This document shows, piece by piece, positions 15,043 to 51,349 of a stretch of 64,000 nucleotides of DNA. A program made the position numbers and the translations under genes. A model generated the notes under the pieces. It had not been told where the DNA came from, did no database searches, and saw nothing but the letters and a program-made list of their open reading frames with translations. Within the stretch, counting starts at the first letter, position 1; every line of letters begins with the position of its first letter. This DNA is from Methanobacteriota archaeon (lineage in GTDB: Archaea; Thermoplasmatota; Poseidoniia; Poseidoniales; Poseidoniaceae): positions 10,126-74,125 of the forward strand of contig PBHR01000001.1 in NCBI GenBank assembly GCA_002720275.1. Direction: 5' to 3'.

Positions 15043-18000
15043 ATGCAAATGAACTATTTACGAAGCAAACACAAAGCAATTTTGATTACGACTCTTTTTG
15101 TATTAGTTAGTCTTTCTACAGTTGTTGGAAGCCACGTTAATTCTGAAGAAAGCCGTTCTATAGGAAATGAGAACATTATGGTGACTGTACTTAGTGATCA
15201 TTATGATGAATTATCCTCAATTACAGTTGGTGCTGCTTTAACAGGATTAAATCCAAGTATTGATTATGATGTTGAATTAACAATTTGTTATGATATGGCA
15301 AATATTGGTAATTGGGAGAGCCCTTCCAATGGATTCACATACGATGATTATGATTGTGATGAACATATGATTGATTCTGAAATATATGATGCTGAAACGG
15401 ATGAATATCAAAATTATTTGTGGGGAGATGTAGTAGATGTTCCTGCAGGAGTTAATAGTTATGTTATTGCTAAAGCAATAGAATTTCAAAGAGATTCAGA
15501 CCTTCATCCTGACGATCTTGGAGAATTTACTTGTAATGATTCTTCAATAATTAATGATTGGTGGATGGTAAATGATGGGAATGCTGATTGTGTAGATGCT
15601 TCAGATGAAGGCTTTGATTATGATAATTGGCCAAGTGAAGTTATAGACGCATCGTATCACTATAATTGCACGGATTGGGAGTATTATGGCTGGGATCAAC
15701 CTTCATTACAATGGACTTGGTATCACTATGATGCTTGTGGAAGAGGTTACTATGTAATCGCCGAATTATTAGTTGGCGATTTCGAATTGGCTGATTCTTA
15801 TTCTAATTCTTTTGCAATCGGATATAGGGGTCACGTTGAATTCGATTCCTTAAGAGAATCAGCAATATTGTCCGGTATGGATTATGAATTTTCATTTGGA
15901 GCTTGTAAGCTGTTTTATTATATCACTGATTTAGTTGAATATGATTTAGATTATAGTGTGCAAAATTTAGATGACATGTCAATAACACATTCAGGAACAC
16001 ATTCACAAATTGACTCAAGATCTAAAACTACAAATTGTGTTTCTGATGAGTCAGTTGTCTTATCGGGACTTTCGGATGGCAACTATAGTTTAACAATTAG
16101 TTTAACACAAGAAGGTGTTTTATTAGAACAGTTTGTTCAGGATTTTTCTGTAGTTGATATTTACATATCTGGAACAGAGGAGTTGAGTATTTCAACACCT
16201 TGGGGACATCATTATAATTCAGAACTTCAGACATGGCCAGGGAGCACTTTTGGAGCGATGATTATACAAATAGATACAGAGAATCTTGAGTATTGGGGGT
16301 CATGGCTTGGTCATCCAATTACTCTTGATTTAAGATTATGTAAATATAGATCTTCATTCAGTTTTCCTTTAGCATCTTCAGGAACTACTTATGATGATTA
16401 TGGGCGATATTGTAATGATGCACAAAGGCCATTAATTTATGATGCTCAAAATGATACTTATGTTGAGGAGCCAGTATTCAATACTTATGAATTAACCGTG
16501 GGTGATATTATTAATGGTTGGTTTTGGTTACCTTTGTATTCAGAATATAATTCCTCCATTCACCCAAATAATCTTGGACAATTTACTTGTGATGATTCTT
16601 CAACAATTAATAATTGGTGGATGGTAAATGATGGGAATGCTGATTGTGTAGATGGTTCAGATGAAGGGTTTGATTATGCTGATTGGCCAAATGAAACAAT
16701 TTCTGCAAATCTCAATACTTATCAATCAGGTTATTGGATAGAAGGAACATTAAAATCAGGACCTTATGTTTTAGTTGATGCATTCTCAAATTCATTTGCA
16801 GTAGGAGATCAAGGTAGTATTCAATATCGTGCTTTACATCCTAATGGAGTCTTAAATGGGATGGATTATGAATTTGATATGAGAGCACGTTGGTTGTTTA
16901 GGTATATCGATACTTTAGTTAATTATGATTTGAACTATAGCGTTACAGATTCTAATTCCAATGTGGTTGCTAATGGAACACATTCTCAAATGGATTCAAG
17001 AGCTCTAACGACATGGGCTTCTGATTGGGAGACTTATTCCATTTCAGGACTAACTCCTGGTGATTATACTCTTGAAATTAATTTGATTGAAGAAGGTGAT
17101 GAAATACATACTTTCGAGCAGGATTTCTCAATAATTGATGAGATGCTTTCCAATGAGGAAGTAATTACCGTTTCAGTAGATTCTAATCATTATGGTGAAA
17201 ATGAGGATATTGAATTGACAGTATCATTGGATAATTTATATCCTGGAACAAATTATGATGTAAATTGGAATGTTTGTAGAGATGCGTTTGAGTTAGATGA
17301 ATTCCCAAATCCTGCTAATGGTACAATATTTGAGAGGTATGATTGTCCTAACTTTATAGGTAGTGGGCCTCAGATATATGATGCTTCAACAGATTCATAT
17401 TCCAATGCATGGGACATTTTACCTCCAGTTCCTGCTGGTTCTACATCTTATTCAGAAACAGTTACGATTCAATCAGAATATATTTCTCAAATTGATCCTT
17501 GGAATTTAGGTGATTATGAGTGTAATTCTGGGGATATGGTATCTATGGGTTGGACTTTAATTAATGATGGCGTTGCTGATTGTGCTGATGGTTCAGATGA
17601 AGGATTTGATTATGCAAATTGGCCAACAGAAAACATCCAAAATCCATTCTCTAATTATATTGAGCAAGAAGGTTTCTACATTGTAGCAGAAATTACTGTT
17701 GCTGGTTTTGAAGTTGTGGATGCATATACAGAATCATTTGCTGTAGGAGATATTGGATATATTGATGTTAGTTCAGATCACGAATCAGGAGTGCTTGCTG
17801 GAATGGATTACAAATTTTACTTCAGAGGTTGTGAGTTATTCCGTTACATCACAGTACCTGTTGATTATAACTTAGATTACTGGGTTTTTGATGATGTGAA
17901 TGGTTTGGTTACATCTGGTTCAAATCAGTTAATTGATTTAAGGTCAATTGATGATTATTGCTCTGATGGTGAATTGATTTCTATTTCAGGTTTAACAGTT

Positions 18001-19182
18001 GATCAAGGTAAAAGAAATAAGCATTATAGTTTGAAAATTATGCTAACCTCTGGAGGTAATGTAATTGATGAATTAAATCATGATTTTACAATTACAGATC
18101 CAATGGCCCCTAATGATGATGCAACATTAGATGTAATGGCTGTTACTGGTTTAAATGGCGTAGGTGTTGTGGATATATTAGTTGACGAAATGACTGCAGG
18201 TCAATTTTATGAGGTAGTTTATACAATTGGAATTGCAGGAGTACAGCCTGAGGTTGGTAATTATATCTTGATAGCTCCACCTACAACAGATGTTGAAACA
18301 ATTTCATTCCCTCATCTCTCTGATGGATATTATTGTATTAACGTAAAATTGATGATAAATAATTGGGAATTAAAATCAACATCTACCTGTTTTAGTCAGC
18401 AATCTACAATTGATTCAGATAATGATGGAATAAGAGATTTAGATGACAATTGCCCTGATGAAGATGCATCAATGGGCCCTGATGTAGATGGCGATGGTTG
18501 TATTGAGCACCCTGATTCAGATTTTGATGGATGGGATGATGTTGATGAGATTGAATGTGGAACAGATCCATTGTGGGAAGAAGAGTATCCATTTGACTTA
18601 GATGGCGATGGTATTTGTGATACTCTTGATACAGACACTGATGGAGACGGCGTTCCAGATTTAATTGAGATTAATGAGGGGACAGATCCTAATGATGACC
18701 AAAGTAAACCAAATGCTCCACCAATTTGTGATATTTATTATGCATTTGAAACATCAGGAATTGTTGTAGCAAACAATAATTTATTGGTTTCCGCAATTCC
18801 TTCAGGGATTCCAACAGTACCAACAAATTTAACAATCACATTACCAGAAGGAAATTATTACCTAATTGCAATGTGTAGTGATCCTGATGGAGATGTTGTT
18901 TCAGTTAACTTAAATGGACAAATGATTAATGCAACAGAGGCTACAGTTGGAGCTTTGGTGATTATGGCTCCAGATACTTCAGAAACTGTTGATTTAATGC
19001 TTTCTTATGGAGATGGTGCTAATTTCTTAGCCGCAATGATTACAGTAAATTTGGATGCGGGTTCTATAGTTCCTACTGTAACTGATGAAACTACAGGACA
19101 AGGAGTCCCTGGATTTACTGGTTTTATTGGAATTATTGCATTAATTGGAGCAACAATTTTTGGTAATCGAAAAAACGAGTAA
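15043..19182 (+). CDS. Giant secreted surface protein: signal peptide, three tandem ~300-aa repeats with LDLa-like Ca-binding motif, TSP3-like Asp repeats, PGF-CTERM anchor
   Basis: Signal peptide AILITTLFVLVSLSTVVGSHV. Motif NDGNADCVD(A/G)SDEGFDY occurs three times. DxDxDGxxDxxDNCP-like run DSDNDGIRDLDDNCPDEDA...DVDGDGC...DLDGDGICDTLDTDTDGDGVPD. C-terminus ...TTGQGVPGFTGFIGIIALIGATIFGNRKNE has PGF, a TM segment and a basic tail. Confidence 0.7.
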   Translation: MQMNYLRSKHKAILITTLFVLVSLSTVVGSHVNSEESRSIGNENIMVTVLSDHYDELSSITVGAALTGLNPSIDYDVELTICYDMANIGNWESPSNGFTYDDYDCDEHMIDSEIYDAETDEYQNYLWGDVVDVPAGVNSYVIAKAIEFQRDSDLHPDDLGEFTCNDSSIINDWWMVNDGNADCVDASDEGFDYDNWPSEVIDASYHYNCTDWEYYGWDQPSLQWTWYHYDACGRGYYVIAELLVGDFELADSYSNSFAIGYRGHVEFDSLRESAILSGMDYEFSFGACKLFYYITDLVEYDLDYSVQNLDDMSITHSGTHSQIDSRSKTTNCVSDESVVLSGLSDGNYSLTISLTQEGVLLEQFVQDFSVVDIYISGTEELSISTPWGHHYNSELQTWPGSTFGAMIIQIDTENLEYWGSWLGHPITLDLRLCKYRSSFSFPLASSGTTYDDYGRYCNDAQRPLIYDAQNDTYVEEPVFNTYELTVGDIINGWFWLPLYSEYNSSIHPNNLGQFTCDDSSTINNWWMVNDGNADCVDGSDEGFDYADWPNETISANLNTYQSGYWIEGTLKSGPYVLVDAFSNSFAVGDQGSIQYRALHPNGVLNGMDYEFDMRARWLFRYIDTLVNYDLNYSVTDSNSNVVANGTHSQMDSRALTTWASDWETYSISGLTPGDYTLEINLIEEGDEIHTFEQDFSIIDEMLSNEEVITVSVDSNHYGENEDIELTVSLDNLYPGTNYDVNWNVCRDAFELDEFPNPANGTIFERYDCPNFIGSGPQIYDASTDSYSNAWDILPPVPAGSTSYSETVTIQSEYISQIDPWNLGDYECNSGDMVSMGWTLINDGVADCADGSDEGFDYANWPTENIQNPFSNYIEQEGFYIVAEITVAGFEVVDAYTESFAVGDIGYIDVSSDHESGVLAGMDYKFYFRGCELFRYITVPVDYNLDYWVFDDVNGLVTSGSNQLIDLRSIDDYCSDGELISISGLTVDQGKRNKHYSLKIMLTSGGNVIDELNHDFTITDPMAPNDDATLDVMAVTGLNGVGVVDILVDEMTAGQFYEVVYTIGIAGVQPEVGNYILIAPPTTDVETISFPHLSDGYYCINVKLMINNWELKSTSTCFSQQSTIDSDNDGIRDLDDNCPDEDASMGPDVDGDGCIEHPDSDFDGWDDVDEIECGTDPLWEEEYPFDLDGDGICDTLDTDTDGDGVPDLIEINEGTDPNDDQSKPNAPPICDIYYAFETSGIVVANNNLLVSAIPSGIPTVPTNLTITLPEGNYYLIAMCSDPDGDVVSVNLNGQMINATEATVGALVIMAPDTSETVDLMLSYGDGANFLAAMITVNLDAGSIVPTVTDETTGQGVPGFTGFIGIIALIGATIFGNRKNE
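15283..18118 (+). repeat. Three tandem intragenic repeats (about 870-1050 nt each) inside the giant surface-protein gene
   Basis: Protein-level repeats begin near aa 80, 433 and 745. The segments around 15561 and 16616 (tggtggatggtaaatgatgggaatgctgattgtgtagatg...) are nearly identical at nucleotide level. Confidence 0.6.
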
Positions 19183-22404: not shown

Positions 22405-22471
22405 TTTTCCCGGCTGGCCCGCCTTTAGGGCAACTCATTGAGTGGGTTTAGATTTGGGAGAAGGTGATGAA

Positions 22472-24376
22472 ATGAGGCTTAGTTTTCATGAAGTAAAAAG
22501 TAAGATATCAAGTATGGTTCCTAAAGATTTGGAATATAAAGTAGATTTAGAGGCTGCAACTGTTGCACTTGTTACCAATCAACCCGAAAGATTTGGTTCT
22601 GGTAGTGGTTTAACTGGTGAGATTGCAAAGGCAATAAAAAGAAGAGTAGTTATTAGACCCGATAAAAGTATTTTATTGTCTGAAAAAGATTCAGTAACTG
22701 AGATAGAATCTATAATTCCCGAGGAGGCTGGACTAAATGATTATTATTTCGATCCTTGTTTTTCTGAATTAACTTTGACATGTGATGACCCTGGAACTGC
22801 AGTTGGTAGAAGAGGGGAAAATATCAATAAACTAAGAGATAAAATCGGTTGGATTGTAAAAGTTGAGAGGACTCCTTCATTGAAGAGTAAAACTGTTGTT
22901 GACATCAGAGGTTTTAGAAAATCTCATGCAGAAGAAAGGAGAAAACTATTACGAGATTTTGGTAGAAATATCTTCAGGCCCAAATTATCAGGTGGTTCGT
23001 GGGCTAGATTGACAGCTTTAGGATCTTATAGGGAAGTTGGAAGGGCATGTCATTTAATTACAACTAATGAGTCTAGAGTTATGATTGATGTTGGAGTTAA
23101 TATTGCTTCGACTACAGACCCGTTGCCTTACTTTAATGCTCCTGAGGCATTACCTTTAGAAAAGATAGATGCAGTGGTGCTTACTCATGCTCACTTAGAT
23201 CATGCAGGCATGTTGCCCGTGTTGTTTAAATATGGTTACAAAGGACCTGTTTATTGTACTCCACCAACTAGAGATATGATGTTGATATTACAATCTGATT
23301 ACCTTAAAGTAGCGGGTGTAGAGGGTAAGTCGCCACCTTATGAGATGGAACATGTTAGAGAAGCTATGAAACATGTCATTGATGTTAATTGGAAAGAAAC
23401 AACAGATATTACACCGGACATAAAAATGACAATGTCTAATTCTGGGCATATTCTAGGTTCATCGGCATGCCATTTCCATATTGGTGAAGGAAAACACAAT
23501 ATTGTTTTTACAGGGGATTCAAAATTCGAAAAGAGTTGGTTGTTTGATGCGGCAAATGTAAAATTCCCAAGGTGTGAAACATTAGTAATTGAATCTACCT
23601 ATGGCGCACAAGGTGATTTTCAACCCTCACGTCTAGAAGCAACTTCGGAATTGCAAGAAATTATTAAAAGAACTATTGGAAGAAATGGAAAAATGATTTT
23701 GCCTGTATTTGCAGTAGGTAGAAGTCAAGAAGTGATGATTGCTATTGATGAATTGTTCCGCAGTGGTGATTTTAAACCTTGCACTGTATATTTGGATGGA
23801 ATGATTCAGGAAGCAACAGCAATCCATGCTTCACATCCTGATTTTTTAACAAGGGATCTGAAAAACTCTATTCAAAAAGACTCTGATAGTAATCCTTTCA
23901 GCGCCCCTTGGTTCCGTAAAGTACAGGGTAGGGAAATGAGAGAATCTATCTTAGTTGATCCAAATCCATGCATTGTTTTAGCAACAAGTGGAATGTTGAA
24001 TGGTGGACCTGTAATGACTTATTTTAGGCATTGGGCTGCAAATGAGAGAAATGCTTTATGTTTTGTTGGCTATCAAGCAGAGGGAACTATTGGAAGGAGA
24101 CTTCAAAAAGGATTTAAACAAGTTCAAATGTTTTATGATGGTGAAACAATAAATTTAGAAGTTAATTGTGAATATATCACAATCGATGGATTTAGTGGTC
24201 ATTCTGATAGGAAACAACTATTGGATTTTGTAGACCAATTAAATCCAAAACCGAATGCGATTATTTGCCATCATGGAGATTATAGGAAATGCAGTGAATT
24301 GGGTAGGGCTCTTAGAGAAAAATACAAGGTTAGGTCTTATTCTCCACAAAATCTTGAAACAATAAGGTTGTTCTAA
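22472..24376 (+). CDS. fttA: aCPSF1/FttA beta-CASP ribonuclease with N-terminal KH domains
   Basis: KH-like N-terminus, metallo-beta-lactamase motif THAHLDHAGMLP, beta-CASP region. GGAGAAGGTGATGA Shine-Dalgarno-like motif upstream of the internal ATG. Confidence 0.85.
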   Translation: MRLSFHEVKSKISSMVPKDLEYKVDLEAATVALVTNQPERFGSGSGLTGEIAKAIKRRVVIRPDKSILLSEKDSVTEIESIIPEEAGLNDYYFDPCFSELTLTCDDPGTAVGRRGENINKLRDKIGWIVKVERTPSLKSKTVVDIRGFRKSHAEERRKLLRDFGRNIFRPKLSGGSWARLTALGSYREVGRACHLITTNESRVMIDVGVNIASTTDPLPYFNAPEALPLEKIDAVVLTHAHLDHAGMLPVLFKYGYKGPVYCTPPTRDMMLILQSDYLKVAGVEGKSPPYEMEHVREAMKHVIDVNWKETTDITPDIKMTMSNSGHILGSSACHFHIGEGKHNIVFTGDSKFEKSWLFDAANVKFPRCETLVIESTYGAQGDFQPSRLEATSELQEIIKRTIGRNGKMILPVFAVGRSQEVMIAIDELFRSGDFKPCTVYLDGMIQEATAIHASHPDFLTRDLKNSIQKDSDSNPFSAPWFRKVQGREMRESILVDPNPCIVLATSGMLNGGPVMTYFRHWAANERNALCFVGYQAEGTIGRRLQKGFKQVQMFYDGETINLEVNCEYITIDGFSGHSDRKQLLDFVDQLNPKPNAIICHHGDYRKCSELGRALREKYKVRSYSPQNLETIRLF

Positions 24377-25891: not shown

Positions 25892-25965
25892 GGGCCCGTG
25901 GGTTAGTTTGGCTATGCTTGGAGCTTTGGGAGCTTTAGACCCCGGTTCAAATCCGGGCGGGCCCA
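25892..25965 (+). tRNA. tRNA-Pro (anticodon UGG)
   Basis: Perfect 7-bp acceptor stem GGGCCCG/CGGGCCC with discriminator A. T-arm CCCGG-UUCAAAU-CCGGG. Anticodon stem GGAGC/GCUUU with loop UUUGGGA. Oligo-T immediately downstream. D-stem pairing is weak. Confidence 0.7.
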
Positions 25966-42083: not shown

Positions 42084-42112
42084 CCTAAAGAATCGTTTGT
42101 TTACGGATAAAT

Positions 42113-42186
42113 GGGCCTGTAGCTTAGTCAGGTAGAGCGACGGACTCTTAATCCGTAGGCCGCGGGTTCGAACCCCGTCAGGCCCG
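42113..42186 (+). tRNA. tRNA-Lys (anticodon CUU)
   Basis: Acceptor GGGCCUG/CAGGCCC with discriminator G. D-stem GCUU/GAGC. Anticodon stem ACGGA/UCCGU with loop CUCUUAA. T-arm GCGGG-UUCGAAC-CCCGU. Confidence 0.8.
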
Positions 42187-42189
42187 TAT

Positions 42190-42979: not shown

Positions 42980-45900
42980 ATGGCGAGGGAGTCATGGACT
43001 AGGAATTTTTTAGCAATCTCCCTTATTTTTTTGGTATTTTTCAGTCCTTTTTCGGGTATTCTTTATTTTGAAGATGAACTAGAATCGGGTTTAAATGTAA
43101 CAAAAAATACATCTGTTGGTAGTAGTGAAGTAGTAAAAATAAATAATTTCCCTAGTGGTTATTCTGAGGATTTTTCAATTTCAATTCCCGAAAATAATGC
43201 ATTGGACCTTTTAGAATTTGATTTAGAGCCACTTGTAGACATTTCCTCAGATCATATTCATTGGGAATCCCAGAATCATTGGACTAATTCATGGGCGGAA
43301 CTTGAAAATGTTGATTATAACAAGTCAGGGTTAAGAATTAATTCACCACCGCCTTCTTGGGATTTTGAATTATTTAACCATGGGTGGACTTTAGATGCTG
43401 CAGGAGGTTGGGCTTGGGGTGTTGATTCTGTTGGTGCTCATGGTGGTTCAAAAGCAATATACACATATTTAGGCCAATACCCAAATCAAATGTCTACAAC
43501 CTATTATGCTACGTCTCCAAGCATAGATTGCTCTTCTTGTAGTGGTGGTTGGAGTGTCAATTTTTGGAAATTATTGGGGGTCGAGAGTAGTTCTTGGGAT
43601 CATGCATATTTTCAAGTGAAGGGTCCTAATGGATGGAATACGATTTGGGAAAATTCTGGTACAATAATTGATAGCAGTTATTCTTTACAGTCCCATAGAG
43701 TTGATTCTTATATTGCAGGAAATAGCGATTTTAAAATTCGTTTTGGATTAGGTCCAACTGATTTTAGTGTTACATATGATGGTTGGAATATTGATGATGT
43801 TTCGATTACTCCAGTACCTGGTTCAGGTAATGGTGCAGCAAAAGTTGAAGGTTCAGGGGATGCTAATTGGACATCACCCACTATTGGCTCAGGGCAATTT
43901 CATTCTACTCGTTCGGGACCCTATGGTTTACTGAATATTTTGGCCGAAACCCCAGAAAATACCGGATTAGATTGGACAATCATTGATTCACAAACAAACC
44001 TTCCAATAACTGGTTACGAAAAAAGAGTTGAATTGTTTTCCGATTTAGGTAGAATTGATTGGTTAAAGCACCCAAGTATTAGAATTAAAGTACACTTGTG
44101 GAGTCAAAATCCTTCTTCACCTATAATTCAATCAATTTCATTAGGTAATCAGTGGGATTTTGACTTTAATCAAGATCCGGGTGAGATGGGTTGGACTGGA
44201 ATTGGAAATTGGATTCCTGGTGAATATCAAGGTTCAGGAGATCTTGAATTCCCTGAAATTCATTCTACAAGGCCGATGCTGTCTGTCGATTTAGAAATAG
44301 ATGTTTCTGGAAACGGTCAATTGCAAATGTCAGAAGGATTTGGAGATTGGAAAAATATTTCACCTATTGGTGTTGTTAATTTGGATAATTATTCAAAAAT
44401 GATTAGATTAAGATGGCTTTCAGATTCTGGCACGTGGTCATTTAGCTCATTAAAAATTGAATTTATGACAGGTATTTTACCACTTCATCCCTCTTTAGAT
44501 ATTCGTAGAGATGGAGAAGAAGAATGGAATTTATCTGAGTCTGAAATAGGTTTTTGGGGTTCTCAGGATAGATGGTCTGACGGTTCTGTTTCCCAACTTG
44601 TTACTTTGTCAACAGGTTCTCCGAAATATATTGATTTTTGGATTCCTTCAAATGTAGTTGAAGGGTTTTGTATGGATTTGACTCCCGAAAACGGTGAAAT
44701 TTCTGAATTAGATGTAGAAATAAGATTAGGATCTACTGCGGTTTATCAAAATTATATTAATGAATTTAATGGAATTTTTAGATTTTGTCTATCCGATGTG
44801 CAGATTGATAATTTAAATGAAAACATTTCAACAAATACGAATGTTTGGAGTAGCAAAGGTCAAAATTTTGTTTCTGCAAAATTAAAATTAACTGGTAGCT
44901 CTCAAAGAATTTTAATTAATGCATTAGACATCTTATATCATCCAAAACTTGAGTTTAGAGAGTATTCAGATTCATCAATTATTTCCGCAATAAATGATTA
45001 TTCATCAAATTCGCCCGTTAATTCTGGAAATTATGACGTGCCTATTCCCTTATTTTCAGTGGTTGAATCTTCTTATCTTGTTACTTTAATCGGTCAACAT
45101 TCAACATCTGGTCTTTTAACAGAAGAAACAATTTTAATTAATTCTACTGAGCCATTAGTTTCATCAGAAAAATGGCTTGAAATAGAATCTAAACATTCAG
45201 TATCTTATGGAGAAATAAAATCTGTAGAATATGAATTTAATTCTGATTTTTCTAAAATTATTTTCAATTTCCCAATCAACAAAGATCCTTATTTTGTTGA
45301 GGGAGATTATGACTTGATAGAATTAAACAACCATCCTTTTGAATATATTGAGGGGGTGGAAAACATTTCAAAATTTAATTTTAGAATTAAACCTATTTGG
45401 GATGATGATTTAAATCTAGAAATTAAGGTTAGACTAGTTAGGGATGATGGTGTAAAAAGTATCCCAGAGATATTAAAAATAGGATTTAATGGGGCTAAAT
45501 CAGTCGAAAATGACGTAGAAATCAAATCCTGGTCAGTACTTAATGACTTAGGAGAAGAAATACCTTTTGGTATGCCCTATCTTAAATCTGGTTCAGATGT
45601 CGTGATTGAAGTGAATGTTGGATTTGAAGATTTTATTACAAACTCTCATTTCCCAAAATCTGGAGATTTAGAAATTATAGTTATGGAAAACGATTTCGAA
45701 ATAGCTAGGAGCAGTAATTTTACCGAGGGTAAAGTTAGTTTTATCCGTTCAATACCTTTTGGACCTGGAAATTTGACTTATGAAATTAAACTCAATCCTT
45801 TGTATTCTCAACTAGATGTTACAGATATTGTTGTAAATAGAACATTTACTGCTGATTCATTAGCGCCACAATTAATTTCAAGTACGCTAGAAAGATATGA

Positions 45901-48091
45901 TCACCGTCACCCCTCTAAAAATCAAATACTTGCCTTTGATGTTTTTGACAGGCCTGTTTTACCAAATGCCTTGAAAATTAATTTATGGAGGGAATGGGTT
46001 GATGATATTGATCAAGATGGCCAACCTTCATTAGAAGAATATTGGTCTAATACGATGTTTAGTCCCGCAAATCTTTCATCCTCTTTTGGAAGGTATACTT
46101 ATGTTTTAGATGATTCTGAAGCTCCAGTTGGAAGTTTAGTTTATGGATTCATAAGTGGTTCTGATTCAGCAGGAAATATATTAGTTGGCGGAGGAGGGGG
46201 GACTTTAGGTGATGAATTATTTGTTTATCAAGTAAAATCTGACGGCTCACCTCAGATTTTACCCGGAGAAATCACATGGAATAATTCAGGGGTGATGTGG
46301 TTAAACCCTGATGTAGAGTATGAATTGAATTTGCCATTTAATGAGCCAAATGGCATTAGTGATATAGATTATGTGATTTTTGATTTGGCAGAATTTACAG
46401 ATGCAGAGGGTATGAGGGTTGTATGGAATTCTTCAGAATCAAGATGTGAATCAAATGGTTACAACTTAGTAATCTTATCTTGTAATATTTATTCCAGAAA
46501 TTCATATTTCGGCCCATTTAATAGTGAATTGGAATTTAGAATTAAATTTAAAATAAAATGGAGTTATTTAGTGGACGAATCATATATACACGAACCTTCT
46601 ATAGAAATTATTGATAGGGCGGGTTATAGTTCAATAATGACTCTTCCACAGTTAAGGTGGAGGTTTTCAAATCAAATCTGGATTGACTCTAATGACTTAG
46701 AATTAACTACTGAAATAGGCTCAAAAATCGACAATAATGTTTATGTTTTACCAGATAATATGATTGGAATAAGAGGATCATTTTCATTTTCAAGGACTGG
46801 AAACCAAGTTTTAACACCCATTAACGTTGAAATGGCAATTGGATTTAATAAACAGACTAATTTTACCACTGAGGGTTACTTTTTCTTTGAATTAAATACA
46901 CCCACATTACCTGGTAATTATCCACTTTCAATAAATTTAGTTGATTTAAATAAAGAAATATTCGATACAAATAATATGTTGACGACTTGGATTGTTGTTG
47001 ATAATCAAGCACCAAAAATAGAGCAAATAAGTTCTCCTCGACCGGATATTTCGTTATCTAGAGAAGAAATCGAAAATTTAGTAATTGATTTTAAAATTAA
47101 AGAAACAATAAAATTAATTCCGGATTCGATAGTTGTTCATTGGTCCATTAATTCAGTAGGTGAAAACCCAGGAGCTTATTTGATTTCTGACGTAATTGAG
47201 GATTTAGATATCGAAGATCCAATTGCTGGTAGCTATTCAATCTCTGTATTATTCCAACTTAATGAGAGACTTAATGACTTACCCATAGATGAGGAATTAA
47301 TCTTCAATATCTGGATTGAAGGTTCTGATGCATCTGGTAATCTTATTTCTGATGAAGATAATAGTGAATATGCCCCATTTGAATCTTGGTTAATTTTACC
47401 TTATCAGCCAATGTTAGTAATTAGTGACATTACATATTCTAAATATGGTGGTATCTCTGTTGGCGATCCAATAAAGGTAGTTGTTACCGTTGAAAATAAT
47501 GGGAATGCAGATGCTGAGACAAATCTAACTGTTTTTATTAAGGCTGCAGATGGAGAATACATGATTTCTAGGGAACCAATAATTGTAAACGTTAATTCTA
47601 AATCATCAGTCGCTCTTGATTGGGCACCTAGTGAAACTGGGGTTCAGTGGATAGAAGTTCGTTGGAATGATGAATACCTTGGGGAAGGATCATTAGTTTC
47701 AGTTTTAGAACCGGAAAGCTCCTTATTTTCCAGTGTGGGTGGTTCTACTACTATTTTTGCTGGAATCTTTATATTAATAATCATCACGATATCTTTGTTA
47801 TTTATCTTGTATAGTGGAGAAGATGAGTATTTTGAAGAATATTATGAAGAAGAAGATGATGAAGAAATTTTAATTCCAGAAACAAAAATAGAAATCTCAA
47901 AACTTCCTCCTTTACCTCCACCTCCAAACATTAATCCTGTACTTAGTAACCCTGAGCCTATAATAAAACCACCTTCAGTAGAAAATAATATTTCAGTTAG
48001 GCAATGGACTGATGAAAAAGGGTATACTTGGAGGATTGAAGGCAATAATCCTGCTAAATGGTGGGATGGTAAAACATGGAAAGAAGTTTAA
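42980..48091 (+). CDS. Giant type-I membrane surface protein: MAM-like N-terminal domain, long beta-rich ectodomain, single TM, acidic/Pro-rich cytoplasmic tail
   Basis: Signal peptide FLAISLIFLVFFSPFSGILY. MAM-like end YDGWNIDDVSITP. TM IFAGIFILIIITISLLFILY. Tail EDEYFEEYYEEEDDEE...LPPLPPPPNINP...GYTWRIEGNNPAKWWDGKTWKEV. Confidence 0.6.
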   Translation: MARESWTRNFLAISLIFLVFFSPFSGILYFEDELESGLNVTKNTSVGSSEVVKINNFPSGYSEDFSISIPENNALDLLEFDLEPLVDISSDHIHWESQNHWTNSWAELENVDYNKSGLRINSPPPSWDFELFNHGWTLDAAGGWAWGVDSVGAHGGSKAIYTYLGQYPNQMSTTYYATSPSIDCSSCSGGWSVNFWKLLGVESSSWDHAYFQVKGPNGWNTIWENSGTIIDSSYSLQSHRVDSYIAGNSDFKIRFGLGPTDFSVTYDGWNIDDVSITPVPGSGNGAAKVEGSGDANWTSPTIGSGQFHSTRSGPYGLLNILAETPENTGLDWTIIDSQTNLPITGYEKRVELFSDLGRIDWLKHPSIRIKVHLWSQNPSSPIIQSISLGNQWDFDFNQDPGEMGWTGIGNWIPGEYQGSGDLEFPEIHSTRPMLSVDLEIDVSGNGQLQMSEGFGDWKNISPIGVVNLDNYSKMIRLRWLSDSGTWSFSSLKIEFMTGILPLHPSLDIRRDGEEEWNLSESEIGFWGSQDRWSDGSVSQLVTLSTGSPKYIDFWIPSNVVEGFCMDLTPENGEISELDVEIRLGSTAVYQNYINEFNGIFRFCLSDVQIDNLNENISTNTNVWSSKGQNFVSAKLKLTGSSQRILINALDILYHPKLEFREYSDSSIISAINDYSSNSPVNSGNYDVPIPLFSVVESSYLVTLIGQHSTSGLLTEETILINSTEPLVSSEKWLEIESKHSVSYGEIKSVEYEFNSDFSKIIFNFPINKDPYFVEGDYDLIELNNHPFEYIEGVENISKFNFRIKPIWDDDLNLEIKVRLVRDDGVKSIPEILKIGFNGAKSVENDVEIKSWSVLNDLGEEIPFGMPYLKSGSDVVIEVNVGFEDFITNSHFPKSGDLEIIVMENDFEIARSSNFTEGKVSFIRSIPFGPGNLTYEIKLNPLYSQLDVTDIVVNRTFTADSLAPQLISSTLERYDHRHPSKNQILAFDVFDRPVLPNALKINLWREWVDDIDQDGQPSLEEYWSNTMFSPANLSSSFGRYTYVLDDSEAPVGSLVYGFISGSDSAGNILVGGGGGTLGDELFVYQVKSDGSPQILPGEITWNNSGVMWLNPDVEYELNLPFNEPNGISDIDYVIFDLAEFTDAEGMRVVWNSSESRCESNGYNLVILSCNIYSRNSYFGPFNSELEFRIKFKIKWSYLVDESYIHEPSIEIIDRAGYSSIMTLPQLRWRFSNQIWIDSNDLELTTEIGSKIDNNVYVLPDNMIGIRGSFSFSRTGNQVLTPINVEMAIGFNKQTNFTTEGYFFFELNTPTLPGNYPLSINLVDLNKEIFDTNNMLTTWIVVDNQAPKIEQISSPRPDISLSREEIENLVIDFKIKETIKLIPDSIVVHWSINSVGENPGAYLISDVIEDLDIEDPIAGSYSISVLFQLNERLNDLPIDEELIFNIWIEGSDASGNLISDEDNSEYAPFESWLILPYQPMLVISDITYSKYGGISVGDPIKVVVTVENNGNADAETNLTVFIKAADGEYMISREPIIVNVNSKSSVALDWAPSETGVQWIEVRWNDEYLGEGSLVSVLEPESSLFSSVGGSTTIFAGIFILIIITISLLFILYSGEDEYFEEYYEEEDDEEILIPETKIEISKLPPLPPPPNINPVLSNPEPIIKPPSVENNISVRQWTDEKGYTWRIEGNNPAKWWDGKTWKEV

Positions 48092-48093
48092 TG

Positions 48094-48394
48094 TTGAGGG
48101 AGTGAAGAGTAAGCCCCTTTTTGTTCACCTTTCGGTTGACCGCATTCAACTATGCGTCCTACCCTTCCCTAAGCGTGCAACCTCTACGGGATTTTTTGGA
48201 CTTGCTCCAATGAGGATATTCGTTTCAGCAATTATTGAGCAATCTCCTCTTTTCAGATTCATCGTTAACACCCATAATCGTTCGTTTCTACTATATTGCC
48301 AGCCATTCCTGACTCCATTTCTGGTCATCTCGCACTATGGAGAGGGGACTTTCCTCAGGGTCTAACCCTGTCAGCGGTCCTTCCACTCCCTCAA
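48094..48394 (-). ncRNA. rnpB: RNase P RNA (archaeal)
   Basis: Minus-strand read shows P1 pairing UUGAGGGAGUG/CACUCCCUCAA at the two ends. P3 hairpin CAGGGUUAGACCCUG. CR-I GAGGAAAGUCCCC. CR-V-like ACAAAAAGGGGCUUAC co-varying with CR-I (CCCC/GGGG). Local GC is higher than the surroundings and no plausible CDS is present. Confidence 0.65.
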
Positions 48395-48454
48395 ATTTCG
48401 TCACAAGTATTACTTTTTGAACTTCACGGTAATGCTTTTTTTAATTCTAATCCT

Positions 48455-51349
48455 TTATTCATTCAATAAAACTGCATCTTTAACAAGATCTTCTGATGTA
48501 TCAATTACAGCATCACCTTCAAATTTAATCCAAGTACCTTTTCCAGAAATTCTAGATTTTGTTTCATACCATGCAGTTATTATTGCAGGCAATAGGAATA
48601 CAGAAGTTATGAATGCGAAACCGATTAGTAGAAACATTAGCATGAAGAAATTTTCTAATCCTGGGAATGCTACAAGGAATCCTGCTGAGATTCCTGCCAT
48701 TGTAGTGGCACTTGTTTCGAAAATAGTCTGACCCGTAGATTCTATAGAACGAGCCAAACCACTCGGTGTTTCACCTTCTTCTCTTATTCTTTCAATCATA
48801 TGAATACAATCATCGACACCAATTCCAAAAACAATACTTCCTACCATTGCCGTAAATACATTTACATTCACATCTCCTCCTCTCATCAGCAATGGCTGCC
48901 ATAAAATAACAATCGCAACTGGAATCATTGTTGTAACTCCAATTCTAAAATTTCTAAAAACAATTACAAGAAAAGCAGTTAATACAAATAGTGTAACTAT
49001 TGTTGTTAATGCTTGTGTGTCATGAATTCCTTTGTTAATGTCCAAAGAAACAGGCAAACCTCCTGTTAATTTACTTGTTCCTGTATTAAGTAATATTGAT
49101 TCTTCAGCTAAAATCACATCAATTTCATCTCTGAGTCCGCCTGCTTTAATCAGGTTCATGTATGGTTGTTCAACATATACTAGGGTTTTTGTTTCATTTT
49201 CATTCATTAGCATTGATCTGACTTCTTCACTTAATGTGTCTAAGGAAACATCTACAAGATCACCTCTTAATTCTGCCCTTGATCCTGAATCTAATTGTTC
49301 CATTGCAAATAATGATACGCATAATGGCAACTCTGTAAGGCCTACATTACTGTCTCCATCCCATTCCCAACATTCACTATGTAATATTCCCCATAGGCTA
49401 TCTGTATATACATTATTTCCGTCCAGTCCTATTGTGACATAAATGCTTTTTAGAAACGTGATTAGGCTTGTTGTCGTAGTATTATCTACATTAGAGACTC
49501 TATTTTCAACTAAATTGATAGTATCAAGTACAGGAAGGTCCCTGATTTGAGTTGTTCCATTAAATGAACTTCGTTCTTCTGCAGAAAATATGAACATACT
49601 TGTTTGTCCAGATTGGAATTCAACAGAATAGTTTGCTAATGTCTCAAGAGATCTTATTCCCTCAGGTGCTTCGGAAGAACCAGCAATAGGCTTGCTCAAT
49701 TCTTCTTGCATATACATTAATCCCCATCCAGAAAATAATGCTGTGATGATTAATATTACAGCAAAATACCTTACTGGCATTTTACCGATATTTCTCCAAG
49801 ATGATGGATTTGCTCTTTTATTAAATCTTAGTAACCAAGCTAAAACTGGAACTAAAATACATGAAAAGAGAAGTGTACATAGAATTCCGAGAACAAGAGT
49901 AATCCCTACAGTTCTCATTGGAACAATCGGAACTAACCCACTAATTGTTAAGACTCCAAAACCAATCATTGTAGTAATTGCAGATAAAAGAACCGCTTTA
50001 CCTGTAGTCCCCATTGTTTCCATTACTGCTTCTCTAAACAAATCTGAATCCCAACTATCAGGTAAAATTTCTTCTGGGTTTCCTAACTGTCTAGATTTGT
50101 AATTTCTTTCTTGAATTTCATCTAAAATCCTTCTTTTTGATTCTTCTATTCGATTCACAAGATGTAATGCATAATCAACACCTAAACCCACAAGGATTGG
50201 TCCTGCAGAAATAATCATTGGAGTTAACATGACATCAAACACTACTGTAGAACCTATTGTGACGGCTAAGGCCATTACTATTGGAATTCCTGAAATAAGC
50301 ACAATTTTCCAACTTCTATGTAATAAAGTAACAATTCCGACAACAAAAACCAAACTCCATGGCATTATTTTTGTTAAATCATCATAAACTGCGTCTGAAA
50401 TGTCTTCTAATACTTTAGTTAAACCAGTAAGTGTCATTGTAGTTTGAGAAAATCCTACAGAACTTCTATTGTCTAGTATATTTTGTACATGAACATGTAT
50501 TTCTGAAAAATCTTTGTGATCTGCAGTCGAAAGATCATGTCTTAACCCAATTAAAATAAATGTTGTATCCCAAATTCCATCATCATTAGAGTCATATACC
50601 ATCCCAGATAATGACCCCTCTAACCTAGAAACAATTTCATCAATTCTATCTTGATCAGGAATGCTATAACTTCCCCATGGGCCTTGATCCGTTTCAGTAC
50701 AAGGAATTGAAAGAGGGACTCTTTCTTCTAATCCATGTTCACAAAGTGATTTTACAAATCGCCCATCACTACTATTTGCTTCTTTAATTATTTGTGAAAT
50801 TGATAGAACCCAAACAATGCCATCTTCTTTGCCTCGATCATCTTTTTTGTAATCGAGACCTCTCCTTGTAGAACTTTCTCCAATGTTTTCATCATCACCT
50901 TCGACCCAACTAATTTCTTTCAATATACTTTCGTCAGTTACATTGAGACCTTCATTTTCATATTTTGCATTACTTGTTTGAATATATATTAGAGAGATGT
51001 CTGTAGACCATTGTTCTCTAACTTCTAGTAGAAGATCGGTTGATTCAGCACCTTCAGGTAGATAGATTTCAACATCTCCAACAATTTGTTCTTCGAAATC
51101 TTTTGCAGAATATGCAAACCACCCCGTAATTAGTATCATGAATGCAAGCGTTACTACTGGAGCTGCAAGAACAGTTTTGTAAGTTTTATCTAGATTTTCA
51201 GTTACTTTCTCTCCAACTTTTTCAATTACTTGATCTATATTTTTATTTGCGACATTTATTTTTCCAGTGCCATAGTTCATGGCTTTTTTATATATGCTAT
51301 TTGAACTATCTTTACTTGTCACATTCACCCCGAGTCGAGTCAATACCAT
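48455..51349 (-). CDS. RND-superfamily exporter (MMPL/SSD-type, 12 TM with two large extracytoplasmic loops)
   Basis: 964 aa with two clusters of 5-6 TM helices, each followed or preceded by a large soluble loop. Typical MMPL/HpnN-like topology. Confidence 0.6.
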   Translation of the reverse strand: MVLTRLGVNVTSKDSSNSIYKKAMNYGTGKINVANKNIDQVIEKVGEKVTENLDKTYKTVLAAPVVTLAFMILITGWFAYSAKDFEEQIVGDVEIYLPEGAESTDLLLEVREQWSTDISLIYIQTSNAKYENEGLNVTDESILKEISWVEGDDENIGESSTRRGLDYKKDDRGKEDGIVWVLSISQIIKEANSSDGRFVKSLCEHGLEERVPLSIPCTETDQGPWGSYSIPDQDRIDEIVSRLEGSLSGMVYDSNDDGIWDTTFILIGLRHDLSTADHKDFSEIHVHVQNILDNRSSVGFSQTTMTLTGLTKVLEDISDAVYDDLTKIMPWSLVFVVGIVTLLHRSWKIVLISGIPIVMALAVTIGSTVVFDVMLTPMIISAGPILVGLGVDYALHLVNRIEESKRRILDEIQERNYKSRQLGNPEEILPDSWDSDLFREAVMETMGTTGKAVLLSAITTMIGFGVLTISGLVPIVPMRTVGITLVLGILCTLLFSCILVPVLAWLLRFNKRANPSSWRNIGKMPVRYFAVILIITALFSGWGLMYMQEELSKPIAGSSEAPEGIRSLETLANYSVEFQSGQTSMFIFSAEERSSFNGTTQIRDLPVLDTINLVENRVSNVDNTTTTSLITFLKSIYVTIGLDGNNVYTDSLWGILHSECWEWDGDSNVGLTELPLCVSLFAMEQLDSGSRAELRGDLVDVSLDTLSEEVRSMLMNENETKTLVYVEQPYMNLIKAGGLRDEIDVILAEESILLNTGTSKLTGGLPVSLDINKGIHDTQALTTIVTLFVLTAFLVIVFRNFRIGVTTMIPVAIVILWQPLLMRGGDVNVNVFTAMVGSIVFGIGVDDCIHMIERIREEGETPSGLARSIESTGQTIFETSATTMAGISAGFLVAFPGLENFFMLMFLLIGFAFITSVFLLPAIITAWYETKSRISGKGTWIKFEGDAVIDTSEDLVKDAVLLNE

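Follow-up and report, generated by a model that had tools for sequence, protein, structure and literature searches.

RNase P is the ribozyme that trims the 5' ends of tRNAs. Among the archaeal forms of its RNA, those of type M are without P8 and have a reduced P15-P17 region. The archaeal enzyme consists of an RNA and the proteins Pop5, Rpp30, Rpp21, Rpp29 and L7Ae, a set carried by enzymes of types A and M (PMC13462272). In type T RNAs the specificity domain is drastically reduced, with both CR-II and CR-III missing (PMC13462272; in part general knowledge), while type A is recognised by the presence of P8 together with a P15/P16 internal loop that carries GGU (PMC13462272 and general knowledge). 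Among the papers covered by a full-text literature search that paired RNase P with Poseidoniales or Marine Group II, none was devoted to the subject.

We examined a 64-kb stretch of DNA (the window) from a low-GC Poseidoniales (Marine Group II) archaeon, and hold it as virtually certain that positions 48094..48394 of its minus strand, about 301 nt, are a single-copy RNase P RNA gene of archaeal type A-like form. With the type A ('ancestral') RNAs described by RF00373 (Methanothermobacter, Pyrococcus, Thermococcus) it shares the full model, comprising P1-P3, P4 with its bulged U, P5/P7, P8, P9, P10-P12 with CR-II and CR-III, and the P15/P16 GGU loop, at a length of about 300 nt against 288. It differs from them in a P8 of only some 3 bp with a GAAA loop, in its CR-V, which reads ACAAAAAGGGG where ACAGAAGGGGG is the commoner form, and in a low GC content of 47%. 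With RNAs of type M (Methanococcales, Archaeoglobus) and type T (Thermoproteaceae), which belong to the same clan, it has the catalytic core of P1-P4, CR-I and CR-V in common; since it keeps P8, P15/P16, CR-II and CR-III, it is neither of the two. The kind of gene is already known, and this canonical, well-conserved example would be called by any Rfam-based annotation, a standard scan finding it at once. What its description contributes is that a housekeeping ribozyme gene is now correctly annotated in uncultured, globally abundant marine archaea, and nothing more fundamental.

Identity and fold of the RNase P RNA

When the whole window was scanned against Rfam 15 with gathering thresholds, a single RNase P match came out, to RF00373 (RNaseP_arch) at 48098..48390 on the minus strand. 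It scores 213.9 bits, where the gathering score is 84 (E 2e-62), and its alignment spans model positions 1-288 of 288 without truncation. RNaseP_arch was also the sole match from the RNase P clan at E <= 1 in a permissive scan of 47900-48600. The preliminary description had read this minus strand as an RNase P RNA and named the Rfam search as a check, and its reading is borne out. A match to CRISPR-DR26 on the plus strand, inside the RNA gene, reached 22.4 bits, below the gathering score of 39 (E 0.27), and was set aside as noise; the only other structured RNAs that Rfam and ARAGORN located in the window are the tRNA genes Pro-TGG (25892-25965) and Lys-CTT (42112-42187), both on the plus strand. 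Folded as a single sequence, the RNA has a z-score of -2.87, with 0 of 100 shuffles equally stable, and all ten relatives that were run through Rfam match RF00373 over the full model at 213-242 bits.

GC content is 0.42-0.45 over approximately 48000-48450, as opposed to 0.28-0.36 in the flanks and roughly 32% in the genome, so that the GC-richer island of about 300 nt noted beforehand is real. The same holds for the statement that it contains spurious ORFs only: small overlapping ORFs of 117 aa (plus strand), 60 aa (minus strand) and 57 aa run across the island, and gene callers leave it without a protein gene in five independent assemblies of the same locus. The protein of 964 residues encoded upstream is found in identical form on Tara Oceans marine metagenome contigs and on DAGL01000149.1 (MAG GCA_002498135.1), with the gene order of the window; the metagenome run from which the window's contig was assembled is ERR598957.

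The RNA folds into P1-P3, a P4 pseudoknot formed by CR-I and CR-V, P5/P7, a short P8, P9, P10-P12 and P15/P16 with its GGU loop, and the printed Rfam alignment covers P1/P2, P3, CR-I, P5, P7, P8, P9, P10-P12 (including CR-II and CR-III), P15/P16 and CR-V. At the ends of the molecule, the P1 5' strand UUGAGGGAGUG (48384..48394) and the P1 3' strand CACUCCCUCAA (48094..48104) form an exact 11-nt inverted repeat, in agreement with the terminal helix proposed earlier. P1 reaches 3-4 bp past the Rfam core on each side. The P3 hairpin of that proposal was likewise found, as CAGGGUUAGACCCUG at 48356..48370, aligned to the P3 stem of RF00373. P4 was judged by CR-I (GAGGAAAGUCC..) and CR-V (ACAxAAxxGGCUUA) with the bulged U. 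Its 5' strand, CR-I, reads GAGGAAAGUCCCC with the bulged U included (48344..48356) and matches the model consensus; its 3' strand, CR-V, reads ACAAAAAGGGGCUUAC (48109..48124) and is aligned to RF00373; the two strands are fully complementary, AAG-U-CCCC pairing with GGGGCUU. The CCCC/GGGG pairing singled out in the preliminary description is thus present, but it is no special feature of this RNA, as it equals the archaeal consensus (...gUCCcC / ...GGgGGcUU).

In the specificity domain, CR-II AGAAACGA (48282..48289) aligns to the consensus ACAGAAACGA and CR-III UGAAACGA (48220..48227) to the consensus GaUGAAACG, and both are conserved in the alignment of 72 Poseidoniales sequences described below (A1). 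The GGU of the P15/P16 internal loop (48161..48163) is invariant, occurring in 72 of 72 sequences at A1 columns 243-245. By analogy with bacterial type A RNAs, we take this GGU to be the expected docking site for the 3'-CCA of tRNA. P8 (48317-48323) is aligned in RF00373 although two model pairs are deleted, and in the window and its closest relatives it is 5 nt shorter than in other Poseidoniales (A1 columns 76-80). It is the one real structural deviation of this RNA, and a small one.

In concert with protein subunits whose genes would lie elsewhere in the genome, the RNA is predicted to cleave the 5' leader off precursor tRNAs. Genes for Pop5, Rpp30, Rpp21, Rpp29 or L7Ae were found neither among the 36 window ORFs scanned against Pfam nor among the Pfam-marked genes in 38455-61349, a neutral result that is to be expected given that 64 kb is a sample of the genome.

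Homologues and covariation

To collect homologues, one genome per GTDB species was scanned with a pattern consisting of CR-I, 205-235 nt and CR-V, which returned at least 120 loci, most of them in Poseidoniales, others in further Thermoplasmatota and some in methanogens. Among the matches listed, the closest RNAs are those of loci L035 (99.3% identity), L023 (91.9%) and L067 (90%), followed by other Poseidoniaceae at 73-78% and Thalassarchaeaceae at about 70%. The homologues from the related loci among the matches listed are 296-316 nt long when cut by the same rule, and within the Rfam boundaries ten Poseidoniales homologues measure 292-298 nt, where the RF00373 consensus has 288 positions. 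A length of about 300 nt is therefore typical, and the RNA does not stand at the small end of its class, as had been supposed.

Alignment A1 comprises the window RNA and 71 Poseidoniales homologues drawn from the matches listed. The RNAalifold consensus computed on it has compensatory changes in 37 of 61 pairs; for the final structure, the P1 extension and the P4 pseudoknot were added and two spurious local hairpins removed. Across A1, standard pairs occupy 97.4% of 4584 cells, a value that falls to 34-46% when partners are slid by 1-3 columns, double-sided changes occur in 39 of 64 pairs over the 72 sequences, and the observed covariation score was reached by 0 of 500 shuffles. Compensatory substitutions uphold the core helices P1, P2, P3, P5/P7, P9, P10-P12 and P15/P16; they are found in 9 of the 12 pairs of P1, and P3 shows covariation in 2 of 4 counted pairs. 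All 7 pairs of P4 are invariant in 72 of 72 sequences, which is uninformative, because the scan that assembled the collection demanded the CR-I and CR-V bases. The P1 extension could be followed past the Rfam boundary: at columns 2/314, 60 of 71 sequences form a standard pair, the Watson-Crick types GC (38), UA (10) and CG (7) among them, columns 3/313 pair in 65 of 71 and columns 1/315 in only 45 of 71. This places the end of the helix at 48094 or 48095.

These results also bear on the reading that the island is a decayed, non-functional copy of the RNase P RNA, or that it codes for a small protein. The ORFs of 117 aa (plus strand) and 60 aa (minus strand) that overlap the island would be in keeping with it, as would the shortened P8. 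However, the Rfam match extends over the entire model and includes every conserved region, and the covariation that preserves the helices includes the variants of the window's own clade. Three other species-level genomes carry RNAs that are 90-99% identical, where the adjacent giant protein is down to 55-77%, and the gene callers ignore both ORFs. We regard such a reading as extremely improbable.

Gene neighbourhood, promoter-like element and clade-specific flip

The RNA gene lies between two protein genes. Upstream and co-directional with it is the gene of the 964-aa protein, an MMPL/RND-type transporter (48455..51349, minus strand; Pfam MMPL, E 2.1e-22), separated from the RNA 5' end by a spacer of 60 nt. 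On the other side, a convergent gene of 1703 aa (42980..48091, plus strand; TAA at 48089-48091) encodes a putative surface protein with a C-terminal transmembrane helix. It has no Pfam family match, so the term surface protein is taken solely from its size and its hydrophobic N- and C-terminal segments. Behind the transmembrane helix, an acidic stretch and a PPLPPPP run, the giant protein closes with a W-rich tail QWTDEKGYTWRIEGNNPAKWWDGKTWKEV (47957-48088, last 44 codons of the gene). Between the window and L035 the RNA is 99.3% identical, the visible C-terminal 395 residues of the MMPL protein 95% and the giant protein 77%, from which it follows that the giant surface protein evolves rapidly. 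Another very large ORF, of 1379 aa, at 15043-19182 on the plus strand, has weak LDL-receptor class A and PRKCSH-like matches, and its product is probably another secreted or surface protein.

A promoter-like element, ACCGUGAAG-UUCAAAAAG, is found in the spacer at 48412..48430 of the minus strand. Its TTCAAA core (48416-48421) occupies -27 to -22 relative to the 5' end of P1 and is preceded by ACCGTGAAG. Among the matches listed, the motif TT[GC]A[AT][AG] (TTSAWR) starts at -26 to -29 in 58 of 73 Poseidoniales loci, in both orientations of the gene. The distance fits that of an archaeal TATA box with BRE, and a start of transcription at or beside the mature 5' end would follow from this. The element may accordingly be read, from its sequence and spacing, as a candidate TATA box/BRE, and the RNA is probably driven by a promoter of its own, this conserved motif lying in the 60-nt spacer beside the MMPL gene, some 27 nt upstream of P1. 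A scan of 47500-49000 for sigma-70 promoters and intrinsic terminators returned counts at the level expected from shuffles, these bacterial models being inapplicable to an archaeon.

The position of the gene extends across the order. Among the matches listed, homologues of the giant and MMPL proteins flank the RNA gene as a convergent pair in most Poseidoniales loci, and giant-protein homologues stand beside it in 61 of 121 loci from other species. In 42 loci, among the matches listed, that show both neighbours, the RNA has the direction of the giant gene and converges with the MMPL gene. The giant gene stops 36-52 nt before the RNA begins in 42 of 51 loci, again among the matches listed. Other Poseidoniales RNAs (e.g., L119, L036, L012, L059) are 70-78% identical to that of the window, with the same helices and a promoter-like motif at -26 to -29, and in loci such as L119, L036 and L038 the same convergent neighbours are seen, with the RNA 3' end abutting the convergent stop, but the orientation of the RNA is opposite to that in the window's clade.

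Four loci, those of the window, L035, L023 and L067, have the RNA gene together with its promoter-like motif (48092-48430 in the window) inverted between the same neighbours. Here the RNA shares its direction with the MMPL gene, from which 40-60 nt separate it, and converges with the giant gene, leaving gaps of 2-4 nt. As the other orientation occurs in both Poseidoniaceae and Thalassarchaeaceae, that of the window's clade is most simply explained as derived. In the four flipped genomes (that of the window, NZKH01, CAZMJH01 and PBGP02) the C-terminus of the giant protein is a conserved W-rich tail, RQWTDEKGYTWR..G..P..WWDG.(T/S)WK(E/D)(V/I), which was not found in the other giant-protein homologues among the matches listed, many of which end in ...PGENPYQ.

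We considered whether recombination between the two arms of P1, as a perfect inverted repeat of 11 nt, might have produced the inversion. This was rejected, since the promoter-like motif moved together with the gene and the inverted segment must therefore be larger than P1-to-P1. An imperfect inverted repeat of 9 nt, GAAGTTTAA / TTGAACTTC (48083-48091 with 48417-48425), brackets the flipped cassette, one arm lying at the end of the giant gene and the other overlapping the promoter-like motif. As these 600 nt contain seven comparable pairs, this repeat is probably due to chance; it was not seen by eye in the flanks of L023.

One could go further and suppose that Poseidoniales keep the RNA and its promoter as a cassette of about 340 bp between the stop codons of two large convergent genes for membrane or surface proteins, where it would serve in either orientation as a bidirectional terminator or insulator. 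We consider this rather unlikely. If it were true, the window's clade would represent a natural orientation-swap experiment, in which the swap coincides with the new conserved W-rich C-terminal tail of the giant protein. As they stand, the position of the gene and its clade-specific flip are minor comparative curiosities that leave the understanding of RNase P unchanged; together with the TTSAWR element and the frequent overlap or abutment at the 3' ends, the order-wide position and the cassette inversion may be of use for annotation and transcription work in Marine Group II.

Packing of the convergent 3' ends

Only 2 nt separate the TAA of the 1703-aa gene from the last base of the extended P1. 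The RNA had previously been placed 3 nt past this TAA, which the paired P1 extension corroborates, with the end of the helix 2-3 nt from the stop codon. Further along the minus strand, U-rich stretches, CUUCUUUCC and then GUUUU, are found at 48071..48086, that is 8-23 nt past the RNA 3' end and within the last codons of the convergent gene; judged by their composition, they are candidate sites at which the precursor of the RNase P RNA would terminate. Transcription would probably enter the 3' end of the 1703-aa gene by a few to about 25 nt before the transcript is terminated or trimmed. On the plus strand, the antisense of CR-V reads CCCCTTTTTGT and contains at 48118-48122 a T5 run, 27-31 nt beyond the TAA, which might act as the terminator of the convergent gene. 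Were both transcripts to stop at the first T-tract they meet, they would share some tens of nucleotides.

Comparison with the related loci indicates that this packing is not unusual. Of 60 loci with the usual layout among the matches listed, 28 have the MMPL stop codon between -19 and +10 nt from the RNA 3' end, five of these with an overlap of 19 nt into the RNA; the convergent stop codon of each of the 4 flipped loci falls within the same range. Measured from the RNA 3' end to the convergent stop, the gap is -19 to +54 nt in 42 of the 60 loci among the matches listed, and in the remaining 18 further genes are inserted at the 3' side of the RNA. Abutting or overlapping 3' ends are the norm for the RNase P RNA gene in Poseidoniales.

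The tight 3'-to-3' packing is in our opinion likely to be a passive by-product of genome streamlining, with no regulatory meaning, the two transcripts just overlapping or finishing near each other. Intergenic spacers are short throughout the window, and among the matches listed the gap varies freely from -19 to +54 nt, with genes inserted in 18 of 60 loci. The window also encodes, at 22442..24376 on the plus strand, a 644-aa beta-CASP/KH protein that matches the general termination factor FttA (aCPSF1) and could handle closely spaced 3' ends. That the RNA gene has been kept between the same convergent genes in both Poseidoniales families, in either orientation, runs counter to a purely passive origin and leaves some room for a positional role.

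Such a role might consist in the RNase P RNA gene acting at the same time as a terminator or insulator for the convergent gene, either through the T5 run or through collision of transcription complexes, and thereby coupling the expression of both genes. The location of the T5 run within the RNA gene, 27-31 nt past the TAA, would suit this proposal, and so would the proximity of the convergent stop, at -19 to +10 nt from the RNA 3' end in 28 of 60 usual and 4 of 4 flipped loci among the matches listed. However, CR-V in most relatives reads ACAGAAAGGGG, which yields only T3 in antisense, so that the T5 run is not a conserved feature, and a strict requirement is hard to reconcile with gaps that vary and with the genes inserted in them. 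We therefore find a coupling of this kind improbable, and favour streamlining as the explanation for the packing.

In some Poseidoniales loci (L018, L019, L036, L044, L064, L077, L111 and L118), the convergent ORF continues for 19 nt into the 3' strand of the RNA gene before it stops, so that coding sequence truly overlaps P1 in antisense; following the MMPL match to its stop codon confirmed this in five loci.
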